NCBI GenBank assembly: GCA_041660305.1
Contig: JBAZWO010000007.1
Location: 1-63,831 of the forward strand
Direction: 5' to 3'
Source of the DNA: Patescibacteria group bacterium
GTDB lineage: Bacteria > Patescibacteriota > Patescibacteriia > UBA9570
DNA length: 63,831 bases
The position numbers and the translations under genes were made by a program. Position 1 is the first letter of the stretch. Every line of letters starts with the position of its first letter. Below the pieces are notes generated by a model. The model did not search any database. It saw only the letters and a list, made by a program, of their open reading frames with translations, and was not told the DNA's origin. This document shows, one piece after another, positions 45,638 to 55,961 of the stretch.

Positions 45638-46144
45638 TTAAGCTAAACGGGCAAATTGTTGAGTAGCTAGCGCAATGGCTAAAGCATCAGCTGCATCGTC
45701 TGGCTTAGGTAAGTTAGTTAGTTTTAAAATACGCTGGGTCATTTGTTGTACTTGTAGTTTAGTAGCGGCGCCATAACCAGTAATGCTTTGTTTTACTTGG
45801 GGTGGGGTTAATTCTAATAATTTAGTATTAAATTGAGCCAAGGCTAGCAAAGTCACGCCGCGAGCTTGACCAACATCTAGGGCAGTTTTTACATTTTTTG
45901 AAAAGAACAATCGTTCGCAACCAGCATAAGCCGGATGATATTGTCCTAACAACTTAGTTAGTTGAGCGTAGAGTAAAACCAGGCGTTGAGCCAACACGGT
46001 TTTGCTAGGAGTGCGAATTACTCCATATTCTAGAACTTTGGTTGTACGATTCTCTATTTCCAAAATGCCATAACCAGTAATAGCTGTGCCAGGATCTATG
46101 CCAATTACTACATTTGAAATTACATTAACTTTAGAGGGCGGCAT
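45638..46144 (-). CDS. ruvC: Holliday junction resolvase RuvC
   Basis: IGIDPG and DAADALAIA motifs. ATG 46144 is preferred. Confidence 0.88.
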   Translation of the reverse strand: MPPSKVNVISNVVIGIDPGTAITGYGILEIENRTTKVLEYGVIRTPSKTVLAQRLVLLYAQLTKLLGQYHPAYAGCERLFFSKNVKTALDVGQARGVTLLALAQFNTKLLELTPPQVKQSITGYGAATKLQVQQMTQRILKLTNLPKPDDAADALAIALATQQFARLA

Positions 46145-46829
46145 TGTGGTACAAATCCATAATATCATCGTTATCCTCTAGCTCTTCTAATAATTTACCT
46201 AGCGAGGCTTGTGCGTCATCGTTTAATGATATCATGGTAAGAGGGCGATTGGTTAATTCAGCTACCGCCACTACGTTGCCTAAAGTAGTTTTTACAGTTT
46301 CGAACAATTCTGGTGGGGTAAATATGGTAATGCCACCAGCTTCTTCAATAATGTCTTCGGCACCAGCATCCATAGCGGCCAGTTGCAGGGCATCGCTATT
46401 TTGTTCAACTCTAATTATACCCGCTGGCTTAAAAAGAAAGCTCACTGAACCAGGGCCGCCTAGATTACCGCCGTGTTTACTTAGAGTGCTTTTTAAATTA
46501 GAACTAGTCCGATTAGTATTATCGGTAGCACAGCGAATTAACATGGCTACGCCATTTGGCCCGTAACCTTCATAGGTAATTTCTTCAATTTTTTGGCCAG
46601 GTAATTCACCGGCTCCACGTGAAATAGCTCGTTCTATATTATCTTTAGGCATACTAACGGCCTTAGCGGCTTCAATGGCCGTGCGTAACGAAGCGTTAAA
46701 TTCCGGATCCTTACCTTTGCGCGCCGCTAAACTAATATTTTTAGAAAGCTTAGTAAACAGCGCTCCTTTTTTAGCATCGGTAACGCCCTTCGCTCTTTTA
46801 ATTGTGGCCCATTTGGAGTGCCCAGACAT
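46131..46829 (-). CDS. yebC: YebC/PmpR-family transcriptional regulator
   Basis: MSGHSKWATIKR N-terminus. Confidence 0.92.
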   Translation of the reverse strand: MSGHSKWATIKRAKGVTDAKKGALFTKLSKNISLAARKGKDPEFNASLRTAIEAAKAVSMPKDNIERAISRGAGELPGQKIEEITYEGYGPNGVAMLIRCATDNTNRTSSNLKSTLSKHGGNLGGPGSVSFLFKPAGIIRVEQNSDALQLAAMDAGAEDIIEEAGGITIFTPPELFETVKTTLGNVVAVAELTNRPLTMISLNDDAQASLGKLLEELEDNDDIMDLYHNAAL

Positions 46830-46961: not shown

Positions 46962-47240
46962 ATGCTATCAGCTGTTTATAAAATTCCCAATGGTAAATTA
47001 CTCAAGATTTTTTTAGAGTTAGATAATAATATTATAAAAAACATCAAAATTACCGGTGATTTTTTTATTTATCCAGAAGAAGCTATCATGAGTATTGAAC
47101 AAGCGTTACTGCAGATACCAATTATTCAAGAGCGGTTAAAACAAAAAATTCAAGCAGTAATTTCTGCGCAGCAGCTAGAATTATTTGGCGTAGATATCGA
47201 GAGTATAGTTAAAACTATTTTATTAGCGGCTAATTCTTAA
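46962..47240 (+). CDS. Lipoate-protein ligase accessory (C-terminal domain) protein, LplB-like
   Basis: 92 aa. KITGDFF motif typical of the LplA C-terminal domain. Sits directly upstream of the catalytic-domain gene. Confidence 0.6.
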   Translation: MLSAVYKIPNGKLLKIFLELDNNIIKNIKITGDFFIYPEEAIMSIEQALLQIPIIQERLKQKIQAVISAQQLELFGVDIESIVKTILLAANS

Positions 47241-47248
47241 TATATGTT

Positions 47249-48013
47249 ATGATTACTTTTCGCTTATTAAAAACCAATCATAATTCAGCCGCTTTTAACA
47301 TGGCTTTAGATGAAATATTGCTAGAGCGCATTAATCAAGGTTTAGCGCAGCCGTGTTTGCGTTTTTATGGTTGGCAACCAGCCGCGATATCGATTGGATA
47401 TTTCCAATCTTTAACAGCTGAAGTTAATGTGCAACGGTGTCAGGAACTAGGTATTGATATCGTGCGTCGGCAAACTGGCGGCGGAGCAGTTTTTCACGAT
47501 CAAGAAGTAACCTATAGCATTCATCTACCATTGGCATTAAATTTGGTGCCGGTTAAAATATTAGATTCCTATCAACGAATTTGTCAGGCTATTATTATTG
47601 GTTTGGCAGAGTTTAATTTAACTGCGCAGTTTGTGCCGCTCAATGATATTGTGGTGCATGGCAAGAAAATATCTGGTAATGCCCAAACTCGTAAAAAAGG
47701 AATTATATTGCAACATGGCACTATTTTACGGGAAGTGGATGTTGATAAAATGTTTGAATTACTCAAAGTGCCAAATGAAAAATTAAAAGATAAATTAATT
47801 TCTGATGTAAAACAACGAGTGATTGGCATTAATCAAATCACTGCTAAGCCATATACTTATGCTGAAGTTGTCGCCGCTTTAATTAAAGGATTTAAACAAG
47901 AATTTTCTGAGATAGAATTTAAAGCCGATACGCTCACTACAGCCGAAATTGAGCTGGCACAGCAATTAGCCGTTGAAAAATATAGTAACAATAATTGGAC
48001 TAACCAAAGATAA
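47249..48013 (+). CDS. lplA: Lipoate/octanoate-protein ligase catalytic domain
   Basis: RRQTGGGAVFHD and KISGNAQ motifs. 254 aa, with no C-terminal domain. Confidence 0.85.
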   Translation: MITFRLLKTNHNSAAFNMALDEILLERINQGLAQPCLRFYGWQPAAISIGYFQSLTAEVNVQRCQELGIDIVRRQTGGGAVFHDQEVTYSIHLPLALNLVPVKILDSYQRICQAIIIGLAEFNLTAQFVPLNDIVVHGKKISGNAQTRKKGIILQHGTILREVDVDKMFELLKVPNEKLKDKLISDVKQRVIGINQITAKPYTYAEVVAALIKGFKQEFSEIEFKADTLTTAEIELAQQLAVEKYSNNNWTNQR

Positions 48014-48016
48014 ATT

Positions 48017-49102
48017 ATGTTAAAAAAAACATCTTTAAATGCTAAACATCATACACTAGGCGCTAGAATGGTTGATTTTGGCGGTTGGGAAATGCCGGTA
48101 ATGTATACAAACCAAATTCAAGAGCACCAAGCGGTTCGGCAACGAGCCGGCCTGTTTGATGTTTCTCATATGGGAGAATTTATTATCACCGGTAGTGATG
48201 CCGTTACATTATTGCAAAAAGTAACCTCACGTGATATTAGCAAAATGACTAATCAACAAGTAGCCTTGGGTGTAATTTGCAATGAACAAGGCGGTATAAT
48301 TGATGATATTACCATTTATAAATACAGTGATCAGAAATATATGCTGGTAGTAAACGCCGGTACTACTCCCGGTGATTACGACTGGATAAAAAAACAAGCC
48401 GTTGGCTTAACGGTACAAGTAGACAATATTAGCGACACGATGACGAAATTGGACACGCAAGGTCCGCAAGCTGAAACTATTTTGCAAAAATTAACCGCGG
48501 CTGATCTAAAATTAATAAAACGTTATAATTTTATAGACACAGCTATTGCCGGCATACCAATGACTATTTCTCGCTCTGGCTACACCGGTGAAGATGGTTT
48601 TGAATTATATTTTACTAACACAGCGGCCGAACAAATTTGGGATAAATTATTAGCCATTGGTCAGGACTACGGTTTATTGCCTTGCGGTTTGGGGGCGCGC
48701 GATACTTTACGCACAGAATGCGGCATGATGTTGTATGGTCATGACATTGATATTAATCATACACCGCTAGAAGCAGTGTATGGTTGGGCGGTATCTTTTA
48801 CTAAGGATTTTATTGGCAAGGCCGCTCTGGAACAGCAAAAACAGGCCGGCTTAACCAGAAAGTTAGTTGGTTTTGAGATGCTGGATCGAGGCATTGCTAG
48901 AGACGGATATTTAATTTATTATAATGGTGAAACAGTGGGTGCAGTAACCAGCGGTGTGCCGTCGCCAACGCTAGGTAAAAATATTGGCCTGGGATATGTT
49001 AAATATGGTTTACACAAATTAGATACAATAATTCAGATACAGATTAGAACTAAGTTAGTGGCGGCAAAAATTGTCAAATTGCCATTTTATAAAAAAAGCT
49101 AA
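48017..49102 (+). CDS. gcvT: Glycine cleavage system T protein (aminomethyltransferase)
   Basis: FGGWEMPV, FDVSHMG and SRSGYTGEDGFE motifs. Confidence 0.93.
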   Translation: MLKKTSLNAKHHTLGARMVDFGGWEMPVMYTNQIQEHQAVRQRAGLFDVSHMGEFIITGSDAVTLLQKVTSRDISKMTNQQVALGVICNEQGGIIDDITIYKYSDQKYMLVVNAGTTPGDYDWIKKQAVGLTVQVDNISDTMTKLDTQGPQAETILQKLTAADLKLIKRYNFIDTAIAGIPMTISRSGYTGEDGFELYFTNTAAEQIWDKLLAIGQDYGLLPCGLGARDTLRTECGMMLYGHDIDINHTPLEAVYGWAVSFTKDFIGKAALEQQKQAGLTRKLVGFEMLDRGIARDGYLIYYNGETVGAVTSGVPSPTLGKNIGLGYVKYGLHKLDTIIQIQIRTKLVAAKIVKLPFYKKS

Positions 49103-49113
49103 TAAATATACAT

Positions 49114-49515
49114 ATGAGCGAACATAAAATTCAAAATGATTTATATTATAACAAAGACCATGAGTGGGTGAAAATAGTAGGCAACGAAGCTACCGTAGGA
49201 ATTTCCGATTATGCCCAGCAATTATTAACTGATGTCGTATTTGTGGAGTTGCCAGATATCGGCAAAATAGTAAAACAATTTGAACGAGCTTGCGTAGTAG
49301 AATCGGTTAAATCAGTATCCGATGTTTATGCGCCGGTAGGTGGTATTGTAGCGGCAGTAAATAAGGCTTTGGAAACCACGCCAGAAGCAGTTAATACCGA
49401 TCCGTATGGAGCCGGCTGGATTTATAAATTATCCGGCGTGAACGCCGCTGAAACTAGTAATTTAATGGATGCCCCTGCTTATAAAACGTTTCTTGACCAA
49501 GACAAAGCGAAATAA
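49114..49515 (+). CDS. gcvH: Glycine cleavage system H protein
   Basis: VESVKSVSDVYAP lipoyl-lysine motif. Confidence 0.93.
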   Translation: MSEHKIQNDLYYNKDHEWVKIVGNEATVGISDYAQQLLTDVVFVELPDIGKIVKQFERACVVESVKSVSDVYAPVGGIVAAVNKALETTPEAVNTDPYGAGWIYKLSGVNAAETSNLMDAPAYKTFLDQDKAK

Positions 49516-49535: not shown

Positions 49536-50858
49536 ATGCCATATATTCCCCATACGCAAACAGATACGGCTGACATGCTTAAAACCATTGGCGTTAATGC
49601 CATAGAAGATTTATTTTCAGCTGTACCCGATAGTATTTTTTTGAAAAATGATTTTAAGTTGCCCCCTGGTTTATCTGAACAAGATGTTAAACGAGTTGTT
49701 ACAACCATGGCTAATAAAAACAAAACCTACCAAGCTTCTTTTTTAGGTGGCGGTATGTATCATCATCATATTCCAGCCCAGGTGCATCATTTAGCTATGC
49801 GCAGTGAATTTTATACCGCTTATACTCCTTATCAACCGGAAATCAGCCAAGGGATTTTGCAATCGATTTTTGAATATCAAACCATGATGACGCGCTTAAC
49901 CGCTTTAGACGCTACCAACGCTTCGATGTATGATGGAGCCACGGCAACAGCTGAAGCGGCTTTTATGCTGGCCGATATTACTCAGAAAAACATTATTTTA
50001 GTGGCTAGCAATGTAAATCCGCAATATCGAGCAGTGTTGCAGACGTACTGTATAGCCAAAGGCTTAACCTTACAAACGGTGCCGTTTGATCAAGCTAGTG
50101 GCCGAGTGGACATTAATCAATTAGAAGTCTTATTAACCGATGCTGTAGCCGGATTATTTATCCAAAGCCCTAATTTTTTTGGAGTGGTTGAAGATGTAAA
50201 ATATTTGTCTGGAAAATTGCACGCTAAAAATAAATTAATCGGGCAAATAATAACTGAAGCCTTATCTTTAGGCATTTTAACGCCACCGGGCGATAACGGC
50301 GTGGATCTAGCTGTAGGCGAAGGCCAAAGTTTTGGCTTGCCGGTATCGGCTGGTGGTCCGGGTTTTGGCTTTTTGGCCACTACGCAAAAATACTTACGTA
50401 AACTACCCGGCAGGATTGTTGGCCAAACAGAAGATAATCAAGGTCGCCGAGCATATGTGCTTACTTTACAAGCCCGTGAACAACACATTAGGCGAGAAAA
50501 AGCCAGTTCTAATATTTGTTCCAATCAAGCTTTGTGCGCCTTGCACAGCGTGATTTATTTAGCCAGTTTGGGCAAAAAGTTACGCGAGCTGGCTTTGTTG
50601 AATCATCAGCACAGTTTGTATTTTCAAAAAGCCCTAATCGCAAAAAAATGGCCACGCACTTTTAGCGCCCCATTTTTTAATGAATTTGTGGTAAAAACAT
50701 CTAACAATGCCGCTGTTATACAAAAACTAGCTGAACATAATATTGCGGCTGGGATAGATTTAGGTAGATTGTATCCAGAATTAAAAGATCATTTATTAAT
50801 TTGCGTGACAGAATTAATTAGCCAAGATGATATGGAAAACTATGAAAACAATATTTGA
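49536..50858 (+). CDS. gcvPA: Glycine dehydrogenase (decarboxylating) subunit 1
   Basis: YTPYQPEISQG motif, 440 aa. Confidence 0.92.
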   Translation: MPYIPHTQTDTADMLKTIGVNAIEDLFSAVPDSIFLKNDFKLPPGLSEQDVKRVVTTMANKNKTYQASFLGGGMYHHHIPAQVHHLAMRSEFYTAYTPYQPEISQGILQSIFEYQTMMTRLTALDATNASMYDGATATAEAAFMLADITQKNIILVASNVNPQYRAVLQTYCIAKGLTLQTVPFDQASGRVDINQLEVLLTDAVAGLFIQSPNFFGVVEDVKYLSGKLHAKNKLIGQIITEALSLGILTPPGDNGVDLAVGEGQSFGLPVSAGGPGFGFLATTQKYLRKLPGRIVGQTEDNQGRRAYVLTLQAREQHIRREKASSNICSNQALCALHSVIYLASLGKKLRELALLNHQHSLYFQKALIAKKWPRTFSAPFFNEFVVKTSNNAAVIQKLAEHNIAAGIDLGRLYPELKDHLLICVTELISQDDMENYENNI

Positions 50859-52269
50859 AAAAACCGTTCCCGGTAGAAGTGCTGTGCAATTACCATCATT
50901 AATAGCTAACGATATAGAAATTGAAAATAGTCAGCAACGGGGTGAGTTAAATTTACCGGAAGTTTCTGAATTAGACATTGTGCGGCATTATACAGCATTA
51001 TCAAAAAGAGCTTTCGGCGTTGATGATGGTTTTTACCCCTTAGGTTCCTGCACCATGAAATATAATCCGAAAATTAATGAAGACATGTCTGGTTTATCCG
51101 GTTTTAGTAACGCTCATCCATGGGATCAAACCAAAAACATCCAAGGTGTTTTAGAAGTTATTTATCGTACGCAAGAGTACTTAAAAGAAGTAACTGGTTT
51201 TACCGGCGTAACATTACAACCAACGGCCGGTGCTCATGGCGAACTTACGGCCGTGATGATGATGCAAGCTTATTATCGAAGCCATGGCGATGCTAAAAGA
51301 AACGTTATATTAATACCCGATTCAGCGCACGGTACTAATCCGGCCACTGCTAACATGTGCGGATTTAAAACCGTTACCGTGCCGTCAGATAAAGATGGTT
51401 ATGTGGATTTAGCCAAGCTAGACGAAGCGTTAAACGACAGCGTAGTTGGTTTGATGCTCACCATTCCTAATACCGTTGGCCTATTTGATAAAAACATTTT
51501 AGACATAGCCAAAAAATTACATGATAACGGTTCCTTGCTTTATATGGATGGAGCTAATCTTAATGCTATTTTAGGTTTGGTGAAGCCGGCTGATATGGGC
51601 GTAGATTTAATGCATATTAATTTGCACAAAACATTTTCTACGCCGCATGGCGGCGGCGGGCCAGGCGGCGGGTTTGTTGGTTGTGTTTCTGCTCTAACGC
51701 CATATTTGCCAGCCGACCAAGTAATGAAAAACGGTGCAGACTACCAATTAACCGCCGATACTGCTAATAGTATTGGCCGAGTACGCTCTTTTTACAGTAA
51801 TTTTGGCGTCATAGTGCGAGCTTTAACTTACATGTTAAGGTTAGGCAAAACCGGTACCGAGCGGGTGGGTAGATATGCGGTGTTAAATGCTAATTATGTA
51901 AAAGCACGTTTGCACGAACATTTTGACGTGCCATTTCAAGCACACTGTATGCATGAAGTTGTATTTAATGATACCAAACAACAAGCTTACCACGTTACTA
52001 CTATGGATATTGCCAAGCGCTTGCTTGATTTTGGTTATCATCCACCCACAATTTATTTTCCATTAATTGTACCGGGCGCTTTAATGATTGAACCAACCGA
52101 AACCGAAAGCAAAGAAACGTTAGATGAGTTTTGTGACGTGATGATAAATATAGCAAAAGAGGCTCAGGAAAATCCTAGTCTGTTACAATCTGCTCCACAG
52201 CTTACACCGGTTGGTCGGGTTGATTCGGTAAAAGCGGCTCGTCAACCGATTATTAAATATGGCGCATAA
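50842..52269 (+). CDS. gcvPB: Glycine dehydrogenase (decarboxylating) subunit 2
   Basis: NLHKTFSTPHGGGGPG PLP-lysine motif. ATG 50842 is preferred over 50827. Confidence 0.92.
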   Translation: MKTIFEKTVPGRSAVQLPSLIANDIEIENSQQRGELNLPEVSELDIVRHYTALSKRAFGVDDGFYPLGSCTMKYNPKINEDMSGLSGFSNAHPWDQTKNIQGVLEVIYRTQEYLKEVTGFTGVTLQPTAGAHGELTAVMMMQAYYRSHGDAKRNVILIPDSAHGTNPATANMCGFKTVTVPSDKDGYVDLAKLDEALNDSVVGLMLTIPNTVGLFDKNILDIAKKLHDNGSLLYMDGANLNAILGLVKPADMGVDLMHINLHKTFSTPHGGGGPGGGFVGCVSALTPYLPADQVMKNGADYQLTADTANSIGRVRSFYSNFGVIVRALTYMLRLGKTGTERVGRYAVLNANYVKARLHEHFDVPFQAHCMHEVVFNDTKQQAYHVTTMDIAKRLLDFGYHPPTIYFPLIVPGALMIEPTETESKETLDEFCDVMINIAKEAQENPSLLQSAPQLTPVGRVDSVKAARQPIIKYGA

Positions 52270-53065
52270 AATTAAATTTGTTTATTTATTCAACACCAAA
52301 GCCATCAGCCTGTCTGGCACAGGCTGTTGCTTTAATTGTGCGCACTGTAACAAACATTATTTAAAGCACATGGCCAAGTTGTCTGATCCAATCGCTGATA
52401 ATGTTACTAGTTTATTAATTAGTGGCGGTTTAAAACAAACTGGTCAATCTTTTATTTTAGACAGAAAAAAGGCTTTGCTAGATTTAAAGAAAACCAGACA
52501 TTTGCGTTTTAATGCTCATGTTGGTTTTGTTAAATCTGAAGAAATCGAGCAAATAATAAAAATTATTGATTGTGTCAGTTTTGATTTTGTAACTGATCCA
52601 AAAGTCATTCAGCGGGTGTATAAAATTAAAAAAACCAAACAGGATTATATAAAACTTTATAAACTATTAGCCAAAAAAATTAAAGTTTATCCGCACATTA
52701 CGATTGGCTTAGATGGCGGCAAAATTCATTGGGAATACGCGGCGATTGATGAATTGTATAAATTAGGAGTAAAATGCTTAGTTTTAAATGTATTAATTCC
52801 TACTCGCCAAACTGAATTTAGTAATATCAAACCGCCGGATTTAGCCGCAGTGCGCGCGGTGATTAAATATTGCCGTCAGGTTTTTAAACCAGGCATTGTC
52901 ATATTAGGTTGCATGCGGCCAGCCGGCCGGTATCGTGAAGAATTAGATAAAATAGCGATCACAGAATTGGTAGATAGGATTGTACAGCCCACGCCGCCGG
53001 CTAGACAACTGGCGGAAAAATTAGGCCTGGTAATTAGTAAATCTTATGAATGCTGTGTTATGTAA
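52259..53065 (+). CDS. Radical SAM protein (LipS1/LipS2-type lipoyl synthase component candidate)
   Basis: CCFNCAHC contains CX3CX2C near the N-terminus. Overlaps gcvPB by 11 nt and the next radical SAM gene by 20 nt. Confidence 0.65.
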   Translation: MAHKIKFVYLFNTKAISLSGTGCCFNCAHCNKHYLKHMAKLSDPIADNVTSLLISGGLKQTGQSFILDRKKALLDLKKTRHLRFNAHVGFVKSEEIEQIIKIIDCVSFDFVTDPKVIQRVYKIKKTKQDYIKLYKLLAKKIKVYPHITIGLDGGKIHWEYAAIDELYKLGVKCLVLNVLIPTRQTEFSNIKPPDLAAVRAVIKYCRQVFKPGIVILGCMRPAGRYREELDKIAITELVDRIVQPTPPARQLAEKLGLVISKSYECCVM

Positions 53066-54014
53066 GATTAGAATATCGATTGGTTCGGCGGCTGTGCTGG
53101 GTTTAACAAAACTAAAACAGCAAGCTTTACCGCGCACTATTTATTTAATGAATTCAGGCGGTTGCCAGTACAATTGTAGTTTTTGTACTCAAGCTAAACA
53201 GGCTACAGCCCGGGCGGATAAGTTAGCTAGAGTGTCGTGGCCAGAATTTACTACGGCGGCTATTCTACAAGCCCTCAAACAAAAACACACTAAATACCGC
53301 AGAATCTGTTTACAGGTTGTTAATACGCCAAATATATTACCAGTCTTGCCTGATTTTATCAAACAAATTAAATTAGCCAATCCAGCGGTTAAGTTAGCAG
53401 TAAATATTAGAACGCTAGATATTAAAGTGATTGATAATTTGATAACAGCCGGAGCCGATGAGATAGGCTTAAGCATTGATGCGATTGATGCCCAGATATT
53501 TAAAAAAATCAGACACGGTCAACTGGACAGCTTATTAAAATTTATTATTATACTAGCCAAAAAATATCCCAACAAAATCGCCACCCATTTAATAGTTGGT
53601 TTAGGCGAATCAGAAAAAGACATGGTACAAATAATTAAACAATTAAGTAAATATAAAGTTATTATTGCTCTATTTGCTTTTACACCGGTAGTAGGCGCGC
53701 AACTACCAACCCAACCATCGCCAAATTTATCCAGTTATCGGCGCATTCAAACGGCTTTGTATCTGATTAGAAATAATTATCCTGTTAAATGTAGTTATAA
53801 TAGTAAAAAACAAATTATCAGCTTTGGCGTAACTAAATCTAAATTAAAGAAAATATTAGAACAGTCCAATGCTTTTGAAACATCTGGTTGCACCGATTGT
53901 AATCGGCCATATTATAATGATCGAGCCGGACAGAAACAATTGTACAATTATCCAGATAAAATTAAAACCAGCGCTTTGGCAAATATTGTACAATCAATCT
54001 TTAATTATAATTAA
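53046..54014 (+). CDS. Radical SAM protein (second LipS-type component candidate)
   Basis: GGCQYNCSFC is a CX3CX2C motif. C-terminal GCTDCNRPYYN Cys pair. Confidence 0.65.
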   Translation: MNAVLCKIRISIGSAAVLGLTKLKQQALPRTIYLMNSGGCQYNCSFCTQAKQATARADKLARVSWPEFTTAAILQALKQKHTKYRRICLQVVNTPNILPVLPDFIKQIKLANPAVKLAVNIRTLDIKVIDNLITAGADEIGLSIDAIDAQIFKKIRHGQLDSLLKFIIILAKKYPNKIATHLIVGLGESEKDMVQIIKQLSKYKVIIALFAFTPVVGAQLPTQPSPNLSSYRRIQTALYLIRNNYPVKCSYNSKKQIISFGVTKSKLKKILEQSNAFETSGCTDCNRPYYNDRAGQKQLYNYPDKIKTSALANIVQSIFNYN

Positions 54015-54024
54015 ATAAAATAAT

Positions 54025-55317
54025 ATGTACGATTACGACGTAATAATTCTTGGCGGCGGACCAGCCGGCTGTGCTTGTGCAATTGAGTTGGCTAAACAGC
54101 AAAAAAAAGTGGCCATTGTAGAGCAACAAGCCATTGGTGGCACGTGCTTAAATCATGGCTGTATACCAACTAAATCATATTTATATACCGTTGAGTTGCT
54201 CAACAACATAAAAAAAGCGCAACGTTTTGGGCTAAAAATAGCTGAACCGGAAATTATTTGGGAAGATATTAAAAAGAAAAAAGACTTAAATGTGAAAGTA
54301 TTGGGTTTGGGCTTAAAAAATACTTTACAGCAGGCCGGAGTAACCATTATAAATGGCTTTGGTAAATTAGTAGATGATCATATTGTTGAGGTATCTGATA
54401 AAAAGTTATCAGCTGAATACATGGTACTGGCCACTGGCACTAAACCATTATTTATACCAGGCATTATACCTGGCGAACATGTAATTTCTAGCACCGAAAT
54501 TTTAAATTTAGATAAAATTCCGGCCAGCTTAACCATTATTGGCGGCGGTGTTATAGGCGTAGAAATAGCCTCAGTATTTTGTGCTTTAGGCACGCCAGTA
54601 ACCATTATTGAAAAAGCCGCCGCTTTGTTAGGTAATATGGATCAGCAAATCAGCGAGCAATTAAAAAATATATTGCAAAAAAAAGGCTGTAAAATCCTAC
54701 TAAATACTACAGTAGCTTCTTGCACCGATAAAAATAATCAAGCTGAAATAATTTATGATAATGATAAAGTATTAAGCACAGATAAAGCCTTGGTGGTAAT
54801 TGGCAGAAAAGCTAACACAGATTTAAAGGTAGTGAATAACAATTTACAAACTAATAAGCCCAATATTTATATCATCGGCGATGCGGCTGGCAAAACCTTA
54901 ACTGCTTATGGCGGTGAAAAAGAAGGTGAGTGCGTAGCTAAACATATTATTAATCAGCAAGATATGAATATTGATTACGCTAACATGCCGATTACGGTTT
55001 TTTCTCAGCCGGAAGTGGCCGCAGTTGGTTTAACCGAAGCTCAGGCTATAAAATTAGGGTTGAATATTGTAGTAAAAACCAGCACTTATGCCGCTAATGC
55101 TAAAGCCATGATTATGGGAGAGCGGGAAGGTCTGGTGAAAATCATTGTTGAACAAACTAATCAAAAAATATTAGGGGTACATATTATTGGCAGCCAAGCC
55201 GTAGATTTAATTCATCAAGCTATCATACCGGTCACAAAAGGCATGACCATTGCTGACTGGAAAGAAGTTACCTGGTCGCATCCGGTCTTATCAGAAGTTA
55301 TTAAAGCGGCTTTATAA
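54025..55317 (+). CDS. lpdA: Dihydrolipoyl dehydrogenase (short form)
   Basis: GGGPAG FAD motif. GGTCLNHGCIPTK redox disulfide. C-terminal HP.L.E motif. Confidence 0.88.
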   Translation: MYDYDVIILGGGPAGCACAIELAKQQKKVAIVEQQAIGGTCLNHGCIPTKSYLYTVELLNNIKKAQRFGLKIAEPEIIWEDIKKKKDLNVKVLGLGLKNTLQQAGVTIINGFGKLVDDHIVEVSDKKLSAEYMVLATGTKPLFIPGIIPGEHVISSTEILNLDKIPASLTIIGGGVIGVEIASVFCALGTPVTIIEKAAALLGNMDQQISEQLKNILQKKGCKILLNTTVASCTDKNNQAEIIYDNDKVLSTDKALVVIGRKANTDLKVVNNNLQTNKPNIYIIGDAAGKTLTAYGGEKEGECVAKHIINQQDMNIDYANMPITVFSQPEVAAVGLTEAQAIKLGLNIVVKTSTYAANAKAMIMGEREGLVKIIVEQTNQKILGVHIIGSQAVDLIHQAIIPVTKGMTIADWKEVTWSHPVLSEVIKAAL

Positions 55318-55725
55318 AACCAGTTTTTTTGTAACAAGTTTTAAACCAAAACCTTGATATTGTTTTATCTTCTGGTCTCGACTCATAAAATAATAATTAT
55401 TACAAATGGCCTGCCAGCACAGCATACGATCAAATGGATCGGTATTTAGTGAAGGTGATAATTTATGAAAATCAACAGCTTCATTAGGGGATATGGTAAT
55501 AATAGTGTAATTACTGGTATTAACATCATTCAATAAAGACGGTAAATCCAACTCATGAAGGGCAAGTTTTCCTAATGAATATTTTAGAGATATTTCCCAT
55601 AAACTAACTACGCTGACAAAAATATTTATATGTGGAGACAGCAACAATGTTTGTTCGTATGGTCGTAATTTTTTTGTATTAGCTAACGACCAAATCAAAA
55701 TATGAGTGTCTAGTAAAATATTCAT
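55312..55725 (-). CDS. vapC: PIN-domain toxin (VapC-like)
   Basis: MNILLDTHILIW N-terminal acidic motif. Overlaps the antitoxin gene by 4 nt. Confidence 0.8.
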   Translation of the reverse strand: MNILLDTHILIWSLANTKKLRPYEQTLLLSPHINIFVSVVSLWEISLKYSLGKLALHELDLPSLLNDVNTSNYTIITISPNEAVDFHKLSPSLNTDPFDRMLCWQAICNNYYFMSRDQKIKQYQGFGLKLVTKKLVL

Positions 55726-55961
55726 GAGCGCAAAAATTCTTCATCGGTCATTTTAAAATTTTTCTTTATGATAATTTTAGCACCACGTTGCTCCGATACG
55801 CCAAGTTTTTTTTGACGCACCACATAGCGTTCAATTGGTACAATTACCGCCACAGGCTCCTTTTTTTTACCAAAAGAAATACCACAGTCCTCACCTTGGC
55901 GTACTTTGGTGAGCACTTCCGAAAAATGAGTTTTTAAATTTCCTACGGTTAGTGTTTGCAT
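55722..55961 (-). CDS. Phd/YefM-type antitoxin
   Basis: LKTHFSEVLTKVRQGE...PVAVIVPIERY pattern. Confidence 0.75.
   Translation of the reverse strand: MQTLTVGNLKTHFSEVLTKVRQGEDCGISFGKKKEPVAVIVPIERYVVRQKKLGVSEQRGAKIIIKKNFKMTDEEFLRS

Follow-up and report, generated by a model that had tools for sequence, protein, structure and literature searches.

We report that the window, a 63,831-nt stretch of DNA comprising an entire contig (JBAZWO010000007.1, here C7) of a 10-contig assembly (1.36 Mb; completeness score, 73.6%) of a bacterium of the Candidate Phyla Radiation (CPR), carries nine genes that very probably form a single operon encoding a complete glycine cleavage system (T, H, P-alpha, P-beta, and L proteins) and, with it, an apparatus for assembling the lipoyl cofactor on the system's own H protein. 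The genes run in the order lplB-lplA-gcvT-gcvH-gcvPA-gcvPB-lipS1-lipS2-lpd on the forward strand, from position 46962 to position 55317 (~8.4 kb), and were identified from the open reading frame list and from matches to Pfam and NCBIfam models. Lipoyl synthesis would be carried out by LipS1 and LipS2, two radical S-adenosylmethionine (SAM) proteins, on octanoate attached to GcvH by a bipartite ligase.

A compact glycine cleavage and lipoylation operon

The nine genes are tightly packed, neighbors being separated by gaps of 3 to 20 nt or overlapping. Read directly from the sequence, the overlaps are 32 nt between gcvPA and gcvPB, 11 nt between gcvPB and lipS1, and 20 nt between lipS1 and lipS2, and their presence suggests that lipS1 and lipS2 may be cotranslated with the rest of the operon. 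The original prediction for this DNA had listed a 92-amino-acid LplB-like protein, LplA, gcvT, gcvH, gcvPA, gcvPB, two radical-SAM genes, and lpdA, with the 11-nt and 20-nt overlaps; Pfam and NCBIfam bore out the gene order, and the open reading frame coordinates and the sequence bore out the overlaps. The radical-SAM motifs that it had named, CCFNCAHC and CQYNCSFC, are likewise present in the translations (C23-x3-C27-x2-C30 and C40-x3-C44-x2-C47, respectively). An Rfam scan of the window returned four tRNAs only and no glycine riboswitch ahead of the operon, and promoter and terminator scans performed no better than they did on shuffled sequences.

Table 1. Genes of the operon and its flanks, with the model matches on which their names are based (positions in the window)
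Feature	Position	Strand	Evidence
lplB, small (accessory) subunit of bipartite lipoate/octanoate-protein ligase	46962..47240	+	NCBIfam LplB equivalog NF053749, 68.8 bits (cut-off 65); Pfam Lip_prot_lig_C
lplA, ligase catalytic subunit	47249..48013	+	Pfam LplA-B_cat, 183.6 bits; TIGR00545, 179.6 bits, model positions 3-239 only
gcvT, aminomethyltransferase	48017..49102	+	TIGR00528, 409 bits (cut-off 236)
gcvH, lipoyl carrier, acceptor K66 in ESVK	49114..49515	+	TIGR00527, 139 bits (cut-off 116)
gcvPA, glycine dehydrogenase subunit 1	49536..50858	+	NF001696, 575.6 bits (cut-off 364)
gcvPB, glycine dehydrogenase subunit 2	50827..52269	+	NF003346, 701 bits (cut-off 441)
lipS1, predicted radical-SAM sulfur insertase, C6 step by analogy, 268 aa	52259..53065	+	NF053742, 283.7 bits (cut-off 230)
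lipS2, predicted radical-SAM sulfur insertase, C8 step by analogy, 322 aa	53046..54014	+	NF053743, 319.7 bits (cut-off 270)
lpd, dihydrolipoyl dehydrogenase (L protein)	54025..55317	+	TIGR01350, 396.3 bits (cut-off 408.8)
Left flank, ruvC and yebC, housekeeping	45638..46829	-	Pfam
Right flank, PIN/Phd toxin-antitoxin pair, convergent with lpd	55312..55961	-	Pfam

LipS1 and LipS2 retain the cluster ligands of the archaeal enzymes

Both radical-SAM proteins exceeded the curated cut-offs of their equivalog models (Table 1). LipS1 covered positions 1 to 268 of the 268 in its model and matched no other NCBIfam family, and LipS2 covered positions 1 to 292 of 292, its next-best scores being 49 bits against a tungsten-cofactor maturase model (cut-off, 380), 42.9 against BioB (TIGR00433; cut-off, 225), and 26.3 against LipA (TIGR00510; cut-off, 310.25). 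The CX4CX5C and RSSY motifs of LipA are missing from both translations, in agreement with the original prediction that neither protein resembled LipA. The AlphaFold2 model of LipS1 (pLDDT [predicted local distance difference test], 94.2) has biotin synthase and HydE as its best solved folds (TMq, ~0.65) and matches LipA/LIAS structures more weakly (TMq, 0.52 to 0.56), in line with published comments on the labeling of such proteins as biotin synthases. A search of the PDB with the LipS1 and LipS2 sequences gave no match at an E value of <0.01.

In Thermococcus kodakarensis, mutagenesis has mapped the LipS1 ligands to C27, C31, and C34 for the radical-SAM cluster and to C230, C276, C277, and the conserved H159 for the auxiliary cluster, and those of LipS2 to C39, C43, and C46 for the radical-SAM cluster and to C85, C276, and C279 for the auxiliary cluster; substitution of any of the auxiliary residues abolishes or strongly reduces activity (PMC9585515). 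We aligned the window proteins with 80 LipS1 and 57 LipS2 homologues taken from fetched loci and matched them to the T. kodakarensis residues by position and motif only. In LipS1, the C23/C27/C30 triad (CX3CX2C), C218 (in GCMRP), H146, and C265-C266 (in the C-terminal ECC) were conserved in all 80 homologues, and in LipS2, C40/C44/C47, C88, and C282-x2-C285 were conserved in all 57. By this correspondence, the window LipS1 and LipS2 retain every cluster ligand mapped by mutagenesis in T. kodakarensis. The two-protein lipoyl synthase of the original prediction is thus supported both by the curated models and by the ligands.

One cysteine differs. Window LipS1 has Leu58 (SGGL) where at least 90% of the other homologues keep a cysteine (SGGC), and among 22 aligned sequences the residue is leucine in all of the CPR type and cysteine in the three others, so that the CPR clade as a whole lacks a cysteine found in most homologues. 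This position probably corresponds to C54 or C65 of the T. kodakarensis protein, two cysteines that can be replaced with little or at most a moderate effect.

The lipS1 start codon

The public gene call for window lipS1 (P0003, 231 aa) starts at Met38 and so drops the CX3CX2C motif, and four homologues (P0022 to P0025) are likewise truncated at an internal methionine in public calls. Across 22 sequences (the window protein and 21 homologues), however, LipS1 residues 1 to 37 contain nine invariant columns. Because these residues align with invariant positions in the 21 homologues, we conclude that the ATG at position 52259 is the real lipS1 start. The internal-methionine calls probably arise from gene callers avoiding the overlap with gcvPB. 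The lesson for annotation is that such a call removes the radical-SAM motif from LipS1, here and in several homologues.

The ligase and its acceptor protein

The ligase is split, as the original prediction had proposed: LplB passes its equivalog cut-off, and LplA, which follows 8 nt after lplB, is a 254-amino-acid protein that consists of the catalytic portion and has no C-terminal domain of its own, its partial coverage of TIGR00545 (Table 1) being what a split enzyme should give. Against the “LplA_large” exception model (NF053750), window LplA scored 183.4 bits (cut-off, 480), and a Thermoplasmata LplA also fell below it (220.7), the model being too narrow to decide. The acceptor motif of GcvH, ESVK, spans residues 63 to 66 and is the core of the peptide substrate used for the T. 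kodakarensis enzymes (PMC9585515). GcvT, GcvH, GcvPA, and GcvPB all scored above their curated cut-offs (409, 139, 576, and 701 bits).

The rest of the genome and a proposed mechanism

Model searches of the assembly found no LipA, the only weak match being LipS2 itself, and no LipB, in keeping with the original prediction, which had held that the rest of the genome should be checked for both. Nor did we find in the assembly LipM or a second catalytic domain of the LplA/LipB/LipM family besides the operon's own, an acyl carrier protein (ACP), or a 2-oxoacid dehydrogenase E2. The sole other Biotin_lipoyl match in the assembly is an HlyD-type membrane fusion protein adjoining an ATP-binding cassette ATPase. 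The absences are reinforced by the five other CPR genomes that carry the module (see below), in none of which was LipA found above the cut-off; the weak matches there lie far below it, and one that was checked by coordinates was lipS2 itself. So far as these searches show, GcvH is the sole lipoyl protein, and every component required for making lipoyl-GcvH is encoded in the operon.

By analogy with T. kodakarensis, LplB and LplA would, at the expense of ATP, load Lys66 of GcvH with free octanoate or with lipoate obtained by scavenging. With a radical generated from SAM and with its auxiliary [4Fe-4S] cluster, LipS2 would then place a sulfur on C8 of the octanoyl chain, and LipS1 would add the second sulfur at C6, giving lipoyl-GcvH, whose dihydrolipoyl arm Lpd would reoxidize during glycine cleavage. 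The methylene-tetrahydrofolate (THF) released would enter the one-carbon pool of the cell through serine hydroxymethyltransferase (SHMT) and FolD, both of which, like SufB/SufD, are present in the assembly. Since no ACP was found, the octanoate would have to be free rather than ACP bound, and since neither LipA, LipB/LipM, nor any other lipoyl protein was found either, the module would be self-sufficient and yet dependent on octanoate or lipoate from an external source. We also considered a route, formate-linked reductive-glycine or ATP-yielding, and dropped the idea because formate-THF ligase was not found in the assembly.

Distribution among CPR bacteria

When one genome of each species was scanned, five other CPR bins, labeled Patescibacteria, Gracilibacteria, Magasanikbacteria, Peribacteria, and Peregrinibacteria, proved to hold these nine genes in an identical order, at 43 to 76% identity; on a sixth contig there is a fragment only. 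These five genomes measure 1.1 to 1.6 Mb, their module copies have a GC content of 0.32 to 0.45, and they have no flanking genes in common with the window. The nearest homologues of all nine window genes come from other small-genome CPR bins. In other CPR copies, an additional 1.2 to 6 kb separates genes that adjoin or overlap one another in the window (L016, 4372-6836; L017, 8017-9232; L019, 8308-10001; L020, 6934-12903).

Among nearer genomes the module is almost without parallel, and in CPR bacteria it is very rare. LipS1, GcvH, and the LplA catalytic domain were absent from all 40 nearest relatives, and LipS1 was absent from 400 evenly sampled genomes of the phylum. Conservation of the lipS genes next to gcvH in relatives, which the original prediction had put forward as a check, therefore holds for every fuller homologous locus fetched and for the distant CPR carriers but not for the 40 nearest relatives, which are without the whole operon. 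Of the 400 other phylum genomes sampled, just 5 contain GcvH, and four of the 5 belong to one family with genomes of 1.4 to 2.0 Mb, a canonical LipA, and an LplA/LipM-family gene. In the three of these genomes that have the genes on one contig, lipA and the ligase-family gene lie a few kilobases from gcvH (G087:C12, 5371-11299; G158:C49, 7072-12773; G059:C48, 54995-61257). A self-contained glycine cleavage module has been reached at least twice in CPR bacteria, once with LipA and once with LipS1/LipS2.

The contig L072 (DATMYQ010000185.1), labeled “Patescibacteria group bacterium,” has a GC content of 0.57 and shows the gene order of Negativicutes and a Negativicutes placement in all three of our trees; it is probably mis-binned and not a CPR sequence. 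The protein P0254 (552 aa, from a 4479-bp contig in the European Nucleotide Archive) is 50% identical to LipS2 over 98% of the length of LipS2 and may be a fused, single-chain LipS1-LipS2 from within or near the CPR-type clade. A partial LipS2 that belongs to the CPR-type clade, P0269 (281 aa; 51% identity), is labeled as coming from a Candidatus Diapherotrites archaeon (DPANN) and represents either a mis-bin or a sign of the module in ultra-small archaea.

Host and genomic site

The host is a Kerfeldbacteria-like, ultra-small CPR bacterium. The best named relatives of YebC, whose gene adjoins the operon on the left, belong to Candidatus Kerfeldbacteria and Patescibacteria (61 to 63% identity), the left flank (yebC-ruvC) is syntenic with 16 relatives, and the relatives in our order, class, and phylum samples have genomes of 0.7 to 2.0 Mb. 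On the right, lpd and the convergent PIN toxin gene overlap by 6 nt at the lpd stop codon.

A genome of the same genus (G001) conserves both flanks, the Phd-PIN pair on one side and yebC-ruvC on the other, with ~4 kb between them. In place of the operon, that site (L117, G001:C19, 3973-7744) carries an IS30-like transposase (HTH_38 and rve domains), an extracytoplasmic function (ECF) sigma factor, and two proteins without a Pfam match. Because this transposase island lies between the same flanks as the operon, we regard the operon site as a variable spot. The operon is accessory at the genus level, whether it was gained in the window genome or replaced in G001. Two more ECF sigma factor genes lie further left at the G001 locus.

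Elsewhere in the window's assembly, the contig C10 (G000, L015, 5811 bp) has a GC content of 0.47, compared with 0.35 to 0.39 for the others, and a tetranucleotide correlation of 0.13 to 0.18 with all other contigs; suspected at first of carrying rRNA, this compositional outlier matched nothing in Rfam, and it may be foreign to the genome.

Phylogenetic placement and a possible archaeal origin

We built quick maximum-likelihood trees, unrooted and thinly sampled, from LipS1 plus LipS2, from LplA, and from GcvPA plus GcvPB. In all three, the CPR sequences form one clade with a support of 100 in the Shimodaira-Hasegawa-like approximate likelihood ratio test (SH-aLRT). The GcvP tree places the window together with the Magasanikbacteria and Patescibacteria sequences (98) and joins the two Peregrinibacteria sequences as a pair (94), a branching that roughly follows taxonomy. 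In the LipS1 plus LipS2 tree, the CPR clade and five Thermoplasmata archaea share a starred branch (97), apart from Bacillota and Chloroflexota, and in the LplA tree the CPR clade lies beside a Thermoplasmata sequence (87). The GcvPA plus GcvPB tree includes one Thermoplasmata sequence and no outgroup and so cannot say whether the gcv half is also archaeal.

Sequence identities point the same way for the lipoylation genes. Window LplA is 50% identical to the Thermoplasmata protein and 29 to 40% identical to the single-domain enzyme of Bacillota and Chloroflexota, and window LipS2 is 40 to 43% identical to the proteins of four of the five Thermoplasmata loci, 33% identical to that of the fifth (L088), and 30 to 39% identical to those of Bacillota and Chloroflexota. 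The first named match to LipS2 outside the clade in a large protein database is from a Thermoplasmata archaeon. These placements can reasonably be read as pointing to an archaeal origin of the lipoylation half, although they do not demonstrate it.

More tentatively, and with somewhat less than even confidence, we suggest the following history. The window operon may belong to a CPR-specific lineage of a self-contained island (split LplAB, the whole glycine cleavage system, LipS1/LipS2, and Lpd) that took its lipoylation half from Thermoplasmata-like archaea and has been moving, or persisting patchily, among Kerfeldbacteria/Magasanikbacteria, Gracilibacteria, and Peregrinibacteria. It would be the only lipoate-dependent enzyme of these ACP-less, ultra-small bacteria, its cofactor would be built from host-derived octanoate, and a second CPR family would have reached the same end with a LipA-based module.

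Weighing the evidence

Several points weigh against the view that the nine genes form a working glycine cleavage and lipoylation operon. Lpd scored just below the cut-off of its model (Table 1) and has gaps of ~17 and ~15 residues relative to all nine homologues aligned with it, and the L protein could be impaired by these two deletions; it keeps the CLNHGC redox disulfide, both dinucleotide-binding motifs, and the C-terminal HP..SE (His-Glu). The characterized bacterial sLpl(AB) ligases prefer LbpA and mostly fail on GcvH (bioRxiv 10.64898/2026.10.01.755906), and the specificity of the window ligase for GcvH is predicted from gene context and archaeal precedent. The enzyme activities and the C8-then-C6 order of sulfur insertion are likewise predicted from one archaeal system. 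Finally, as the assembly is scored only 73.6% complete, the absence of lipA, lipB, and ACP means that they were not found and is not proof that the organism lacks them.

We also weighed three other explanations. Operons of this kind are common in Bacillota, Chloroflexota, and archaeal genomes, and the contig or the operon could be a binning or assembly contaminant from one of them, as the lack of LipS1, GcvH, and the LplA domain in the 40 nearest relatives and of LipS1 in the 400 sampled phylum genomes would allow; at least one public “Patescibacteria” contig with the module (L072, GC content 0.57), which clusters inside Negativicutes, looks mis-binned. The tetranucleotide profile of C7, however, correlates at 0.98 to 0.99 with those of the other large contigs, and the operon itself (0.969) is as typical as random 8.3-kb chunks of the genome (mean, 0.960). 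Moreover, the Kerfeldbacteria-like yebC-ruvC genes and the PIN/Phd pair that flank it are both syntenic with the same-genus genome, and for each of the nine genes the nearest homologues come from other CPR bins of 1.1 to 1.6 Mb. We consider contamination highly improbable. It is just as hard to believe that the two radical-SAM proteins perform some other sulfur-insertion or maturation job (that of biotin synthase, of a HydE/PylB-like enzyme, or one related to thiamine) and lie in a gcv operon by chance. Many homologues are named “biotin synthase” in public sources, the solved structures closest to the LipS1 model are those of BioB and HydE, and Pfam gave no Radical_SAM match for LipS1 at an E value of <0.01. 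But the label is a known misannotation of LipS proteins (PMC9585515), and assignment to an unrelated radical-SAM family, which the original prediction had named as the outcome that would overturn it, is contradicted by the models: those for BioB and LipA fail, no other NCBIfam family matches LipS1, and those for the LipS proteins pass. The LipS-specific auxiliary ligands are invariant, and the pair is linked to gcvH and/or a gene of the lipoate ligase family in 62 of the 80 fetched loci, the remainder being mostly short contigs.

The third explanation, which is unlikely, though not to the same degree, is that the module in practice serves lipoate salvage, with LplAB attaching host-derived lipoate and LipS1/LipS2 rarely needed or being lost. 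Because CPR bacteria depend on other cells, they may have access to free lipoate, the T. kodakarensis ligase also salvages lipoate (PMC13692748), and window Lpd already has two deletions. Both lipS genes, on the other hand, are intact, overlap their neighbors, and keep every ligand, and the pair is kept in all six CPR copies at only 51 to 63% identity to the window, which points to long-term purifying selection; salvage and synthesis, besides, are not mutually exclusive. We therefore retain the reading of the block as one operon for glycine cleavage and for assembly of the lipoyl cofactor on its own H protein.

Comparison with known systems

A close precedent is the system of T. kodakarensis, the organism in which LipS1/LipS2 were discovered; it consists of LipS1 (TK2109), LipS2 (TK2248), and the heterodimeric ligase TK1908/TK1234 (Jin et al. 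2020; Neti et al. 2022, PMC9585515; reviewed in PMC13692748). In that archaeon, which has no ACP, the heterodimeric ligase loads free octanoate, which LipS2 and then LipS1 convert (PMC13692748). The window shares with it two radical-SAM proteins, each with a CX3CX2C motif and an auxiliary cluster predicted at the same cysteine (and histidine) positions, as well as a split LplA plus LplB, an organism in which no ACP was found, and GcvH as the target. It differs in that all of the genes lie in one operon with the glycine cleavage genes and in that its host is bacterial, with a ~1.4-Mb genome.

The original prediction had proposed that the archaeal solution is also used in a bacterium. The system is indeed present here, but its occurrence in bacteria is not new, the LipS1/LipS2 pathway having been shown experimentally in 2023 in the sulfur oxidizers Hyphomicrobium denitrificans and Thioalkalivibrio (Tanabe et al. 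2023, PMC10332631). The same study put the share of bacterial genomes with Lpl plus LipS1/S2 at 0.9%, named Sporomusa as one of the mesophilic carriers, and inferred that the pathway arose in archaea and was transferred many times (PMC10332631). Like the window system, the sLpl(AB)-LipS1/LipS2 systems of sulfur oxidizers combine a ligase with LipS1/LipS2 acting on a carrier of the GcvH fold in bacteria. However, they serve LbpA of the sHdr pathway, have a fused Lpl(AB) and often LipT, coexist with LipA, and mostly leave GcvH unmodified, whereas the window has a split ligase and GcvH as the only carrier, with no lipT-like gene seen in the operon and no LipA found.

In gene order, the operon resembles those of anaerobic Bacillota (Sporomusa, Pelosinus, Desulfosporosinus, and Halanaerobiales) and Chloroflexota, in which the arrangement gcvT-gcvH-gcvPA-gcvPB-lipS1-lipS2-ligase-lpd is common among the loci fetched; there, too, lipS1/lipS2 directly follow gcvPB, often overlapping, and lpd stands at the end. 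Those operons have a single-domain LplA/LipM-family gene after lipS2 (so described because no LipM model in NCBIfam matched it) and no lplB by tblastn, whereas the CPR clade has a split lplB-lplA ahead of gcvT, and the CPR LipS1/LipS2 form a separate clade (SH-aLRT, 100) with 32 to 47% identity to theirs. The (gcvH-gcvPA-gcvPB)-lipS1-lipS2-lplB-lplA clusters of Thermoplasmata/Methanomassiliicoccales share the split lplB plus lplA and have the highest identity to window LplA and LipS2 outside the clade, but they place the ligase after lipS2, showed neither gcvT nor lpd, and belong to archaea. LipA/LIAS carries out the same overall reaction, the insertion of two sulfurs into octanoyl-lysine by radical-SAM chemistry with a sacrificial auxiliary cluster; it does so, unlike the window system, as one protein with the CX4CX5C and RSSY motifs and with insertion at C6 and then C8.

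We found no literature on LipS1/LipS2 or on glycine cleavage operons in CPR bacteria, with the reservation that an earlier listing in the supplement of the 2023 survey (PMC10332631) is possible, nor any direct biochemical study of the GcvH-dedicated bacterial form of LipS1/LipS2, whether that of the window or that of Bacillota. For lipoate biology, the operon is one more case of a published pathway and adds little. For CPR biology, it means that bacteria regarded as metabolically minimal can nevertheless hold a complete lipoate-dependent system and a cofactor assembly line in one 8.4-kb operon, and the presence of such a system in an assembly in which neither an ACP nor a second lipoyl protein was found implies uptake of free octanoate or lipoate from the host or the community. 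The nine-gene cassette is compact enough to serve for examining the specificity of LipS1/LipS2 for GcvH, since the bacterial sLpl(AB) ligases studied mostly do not modify that protein. The LipS1/LipS2 pathway itself is already known and has curated models; what is distinctive here is the CPR host, the split ligase ahead of gcvT, and the distinct CPR clade.

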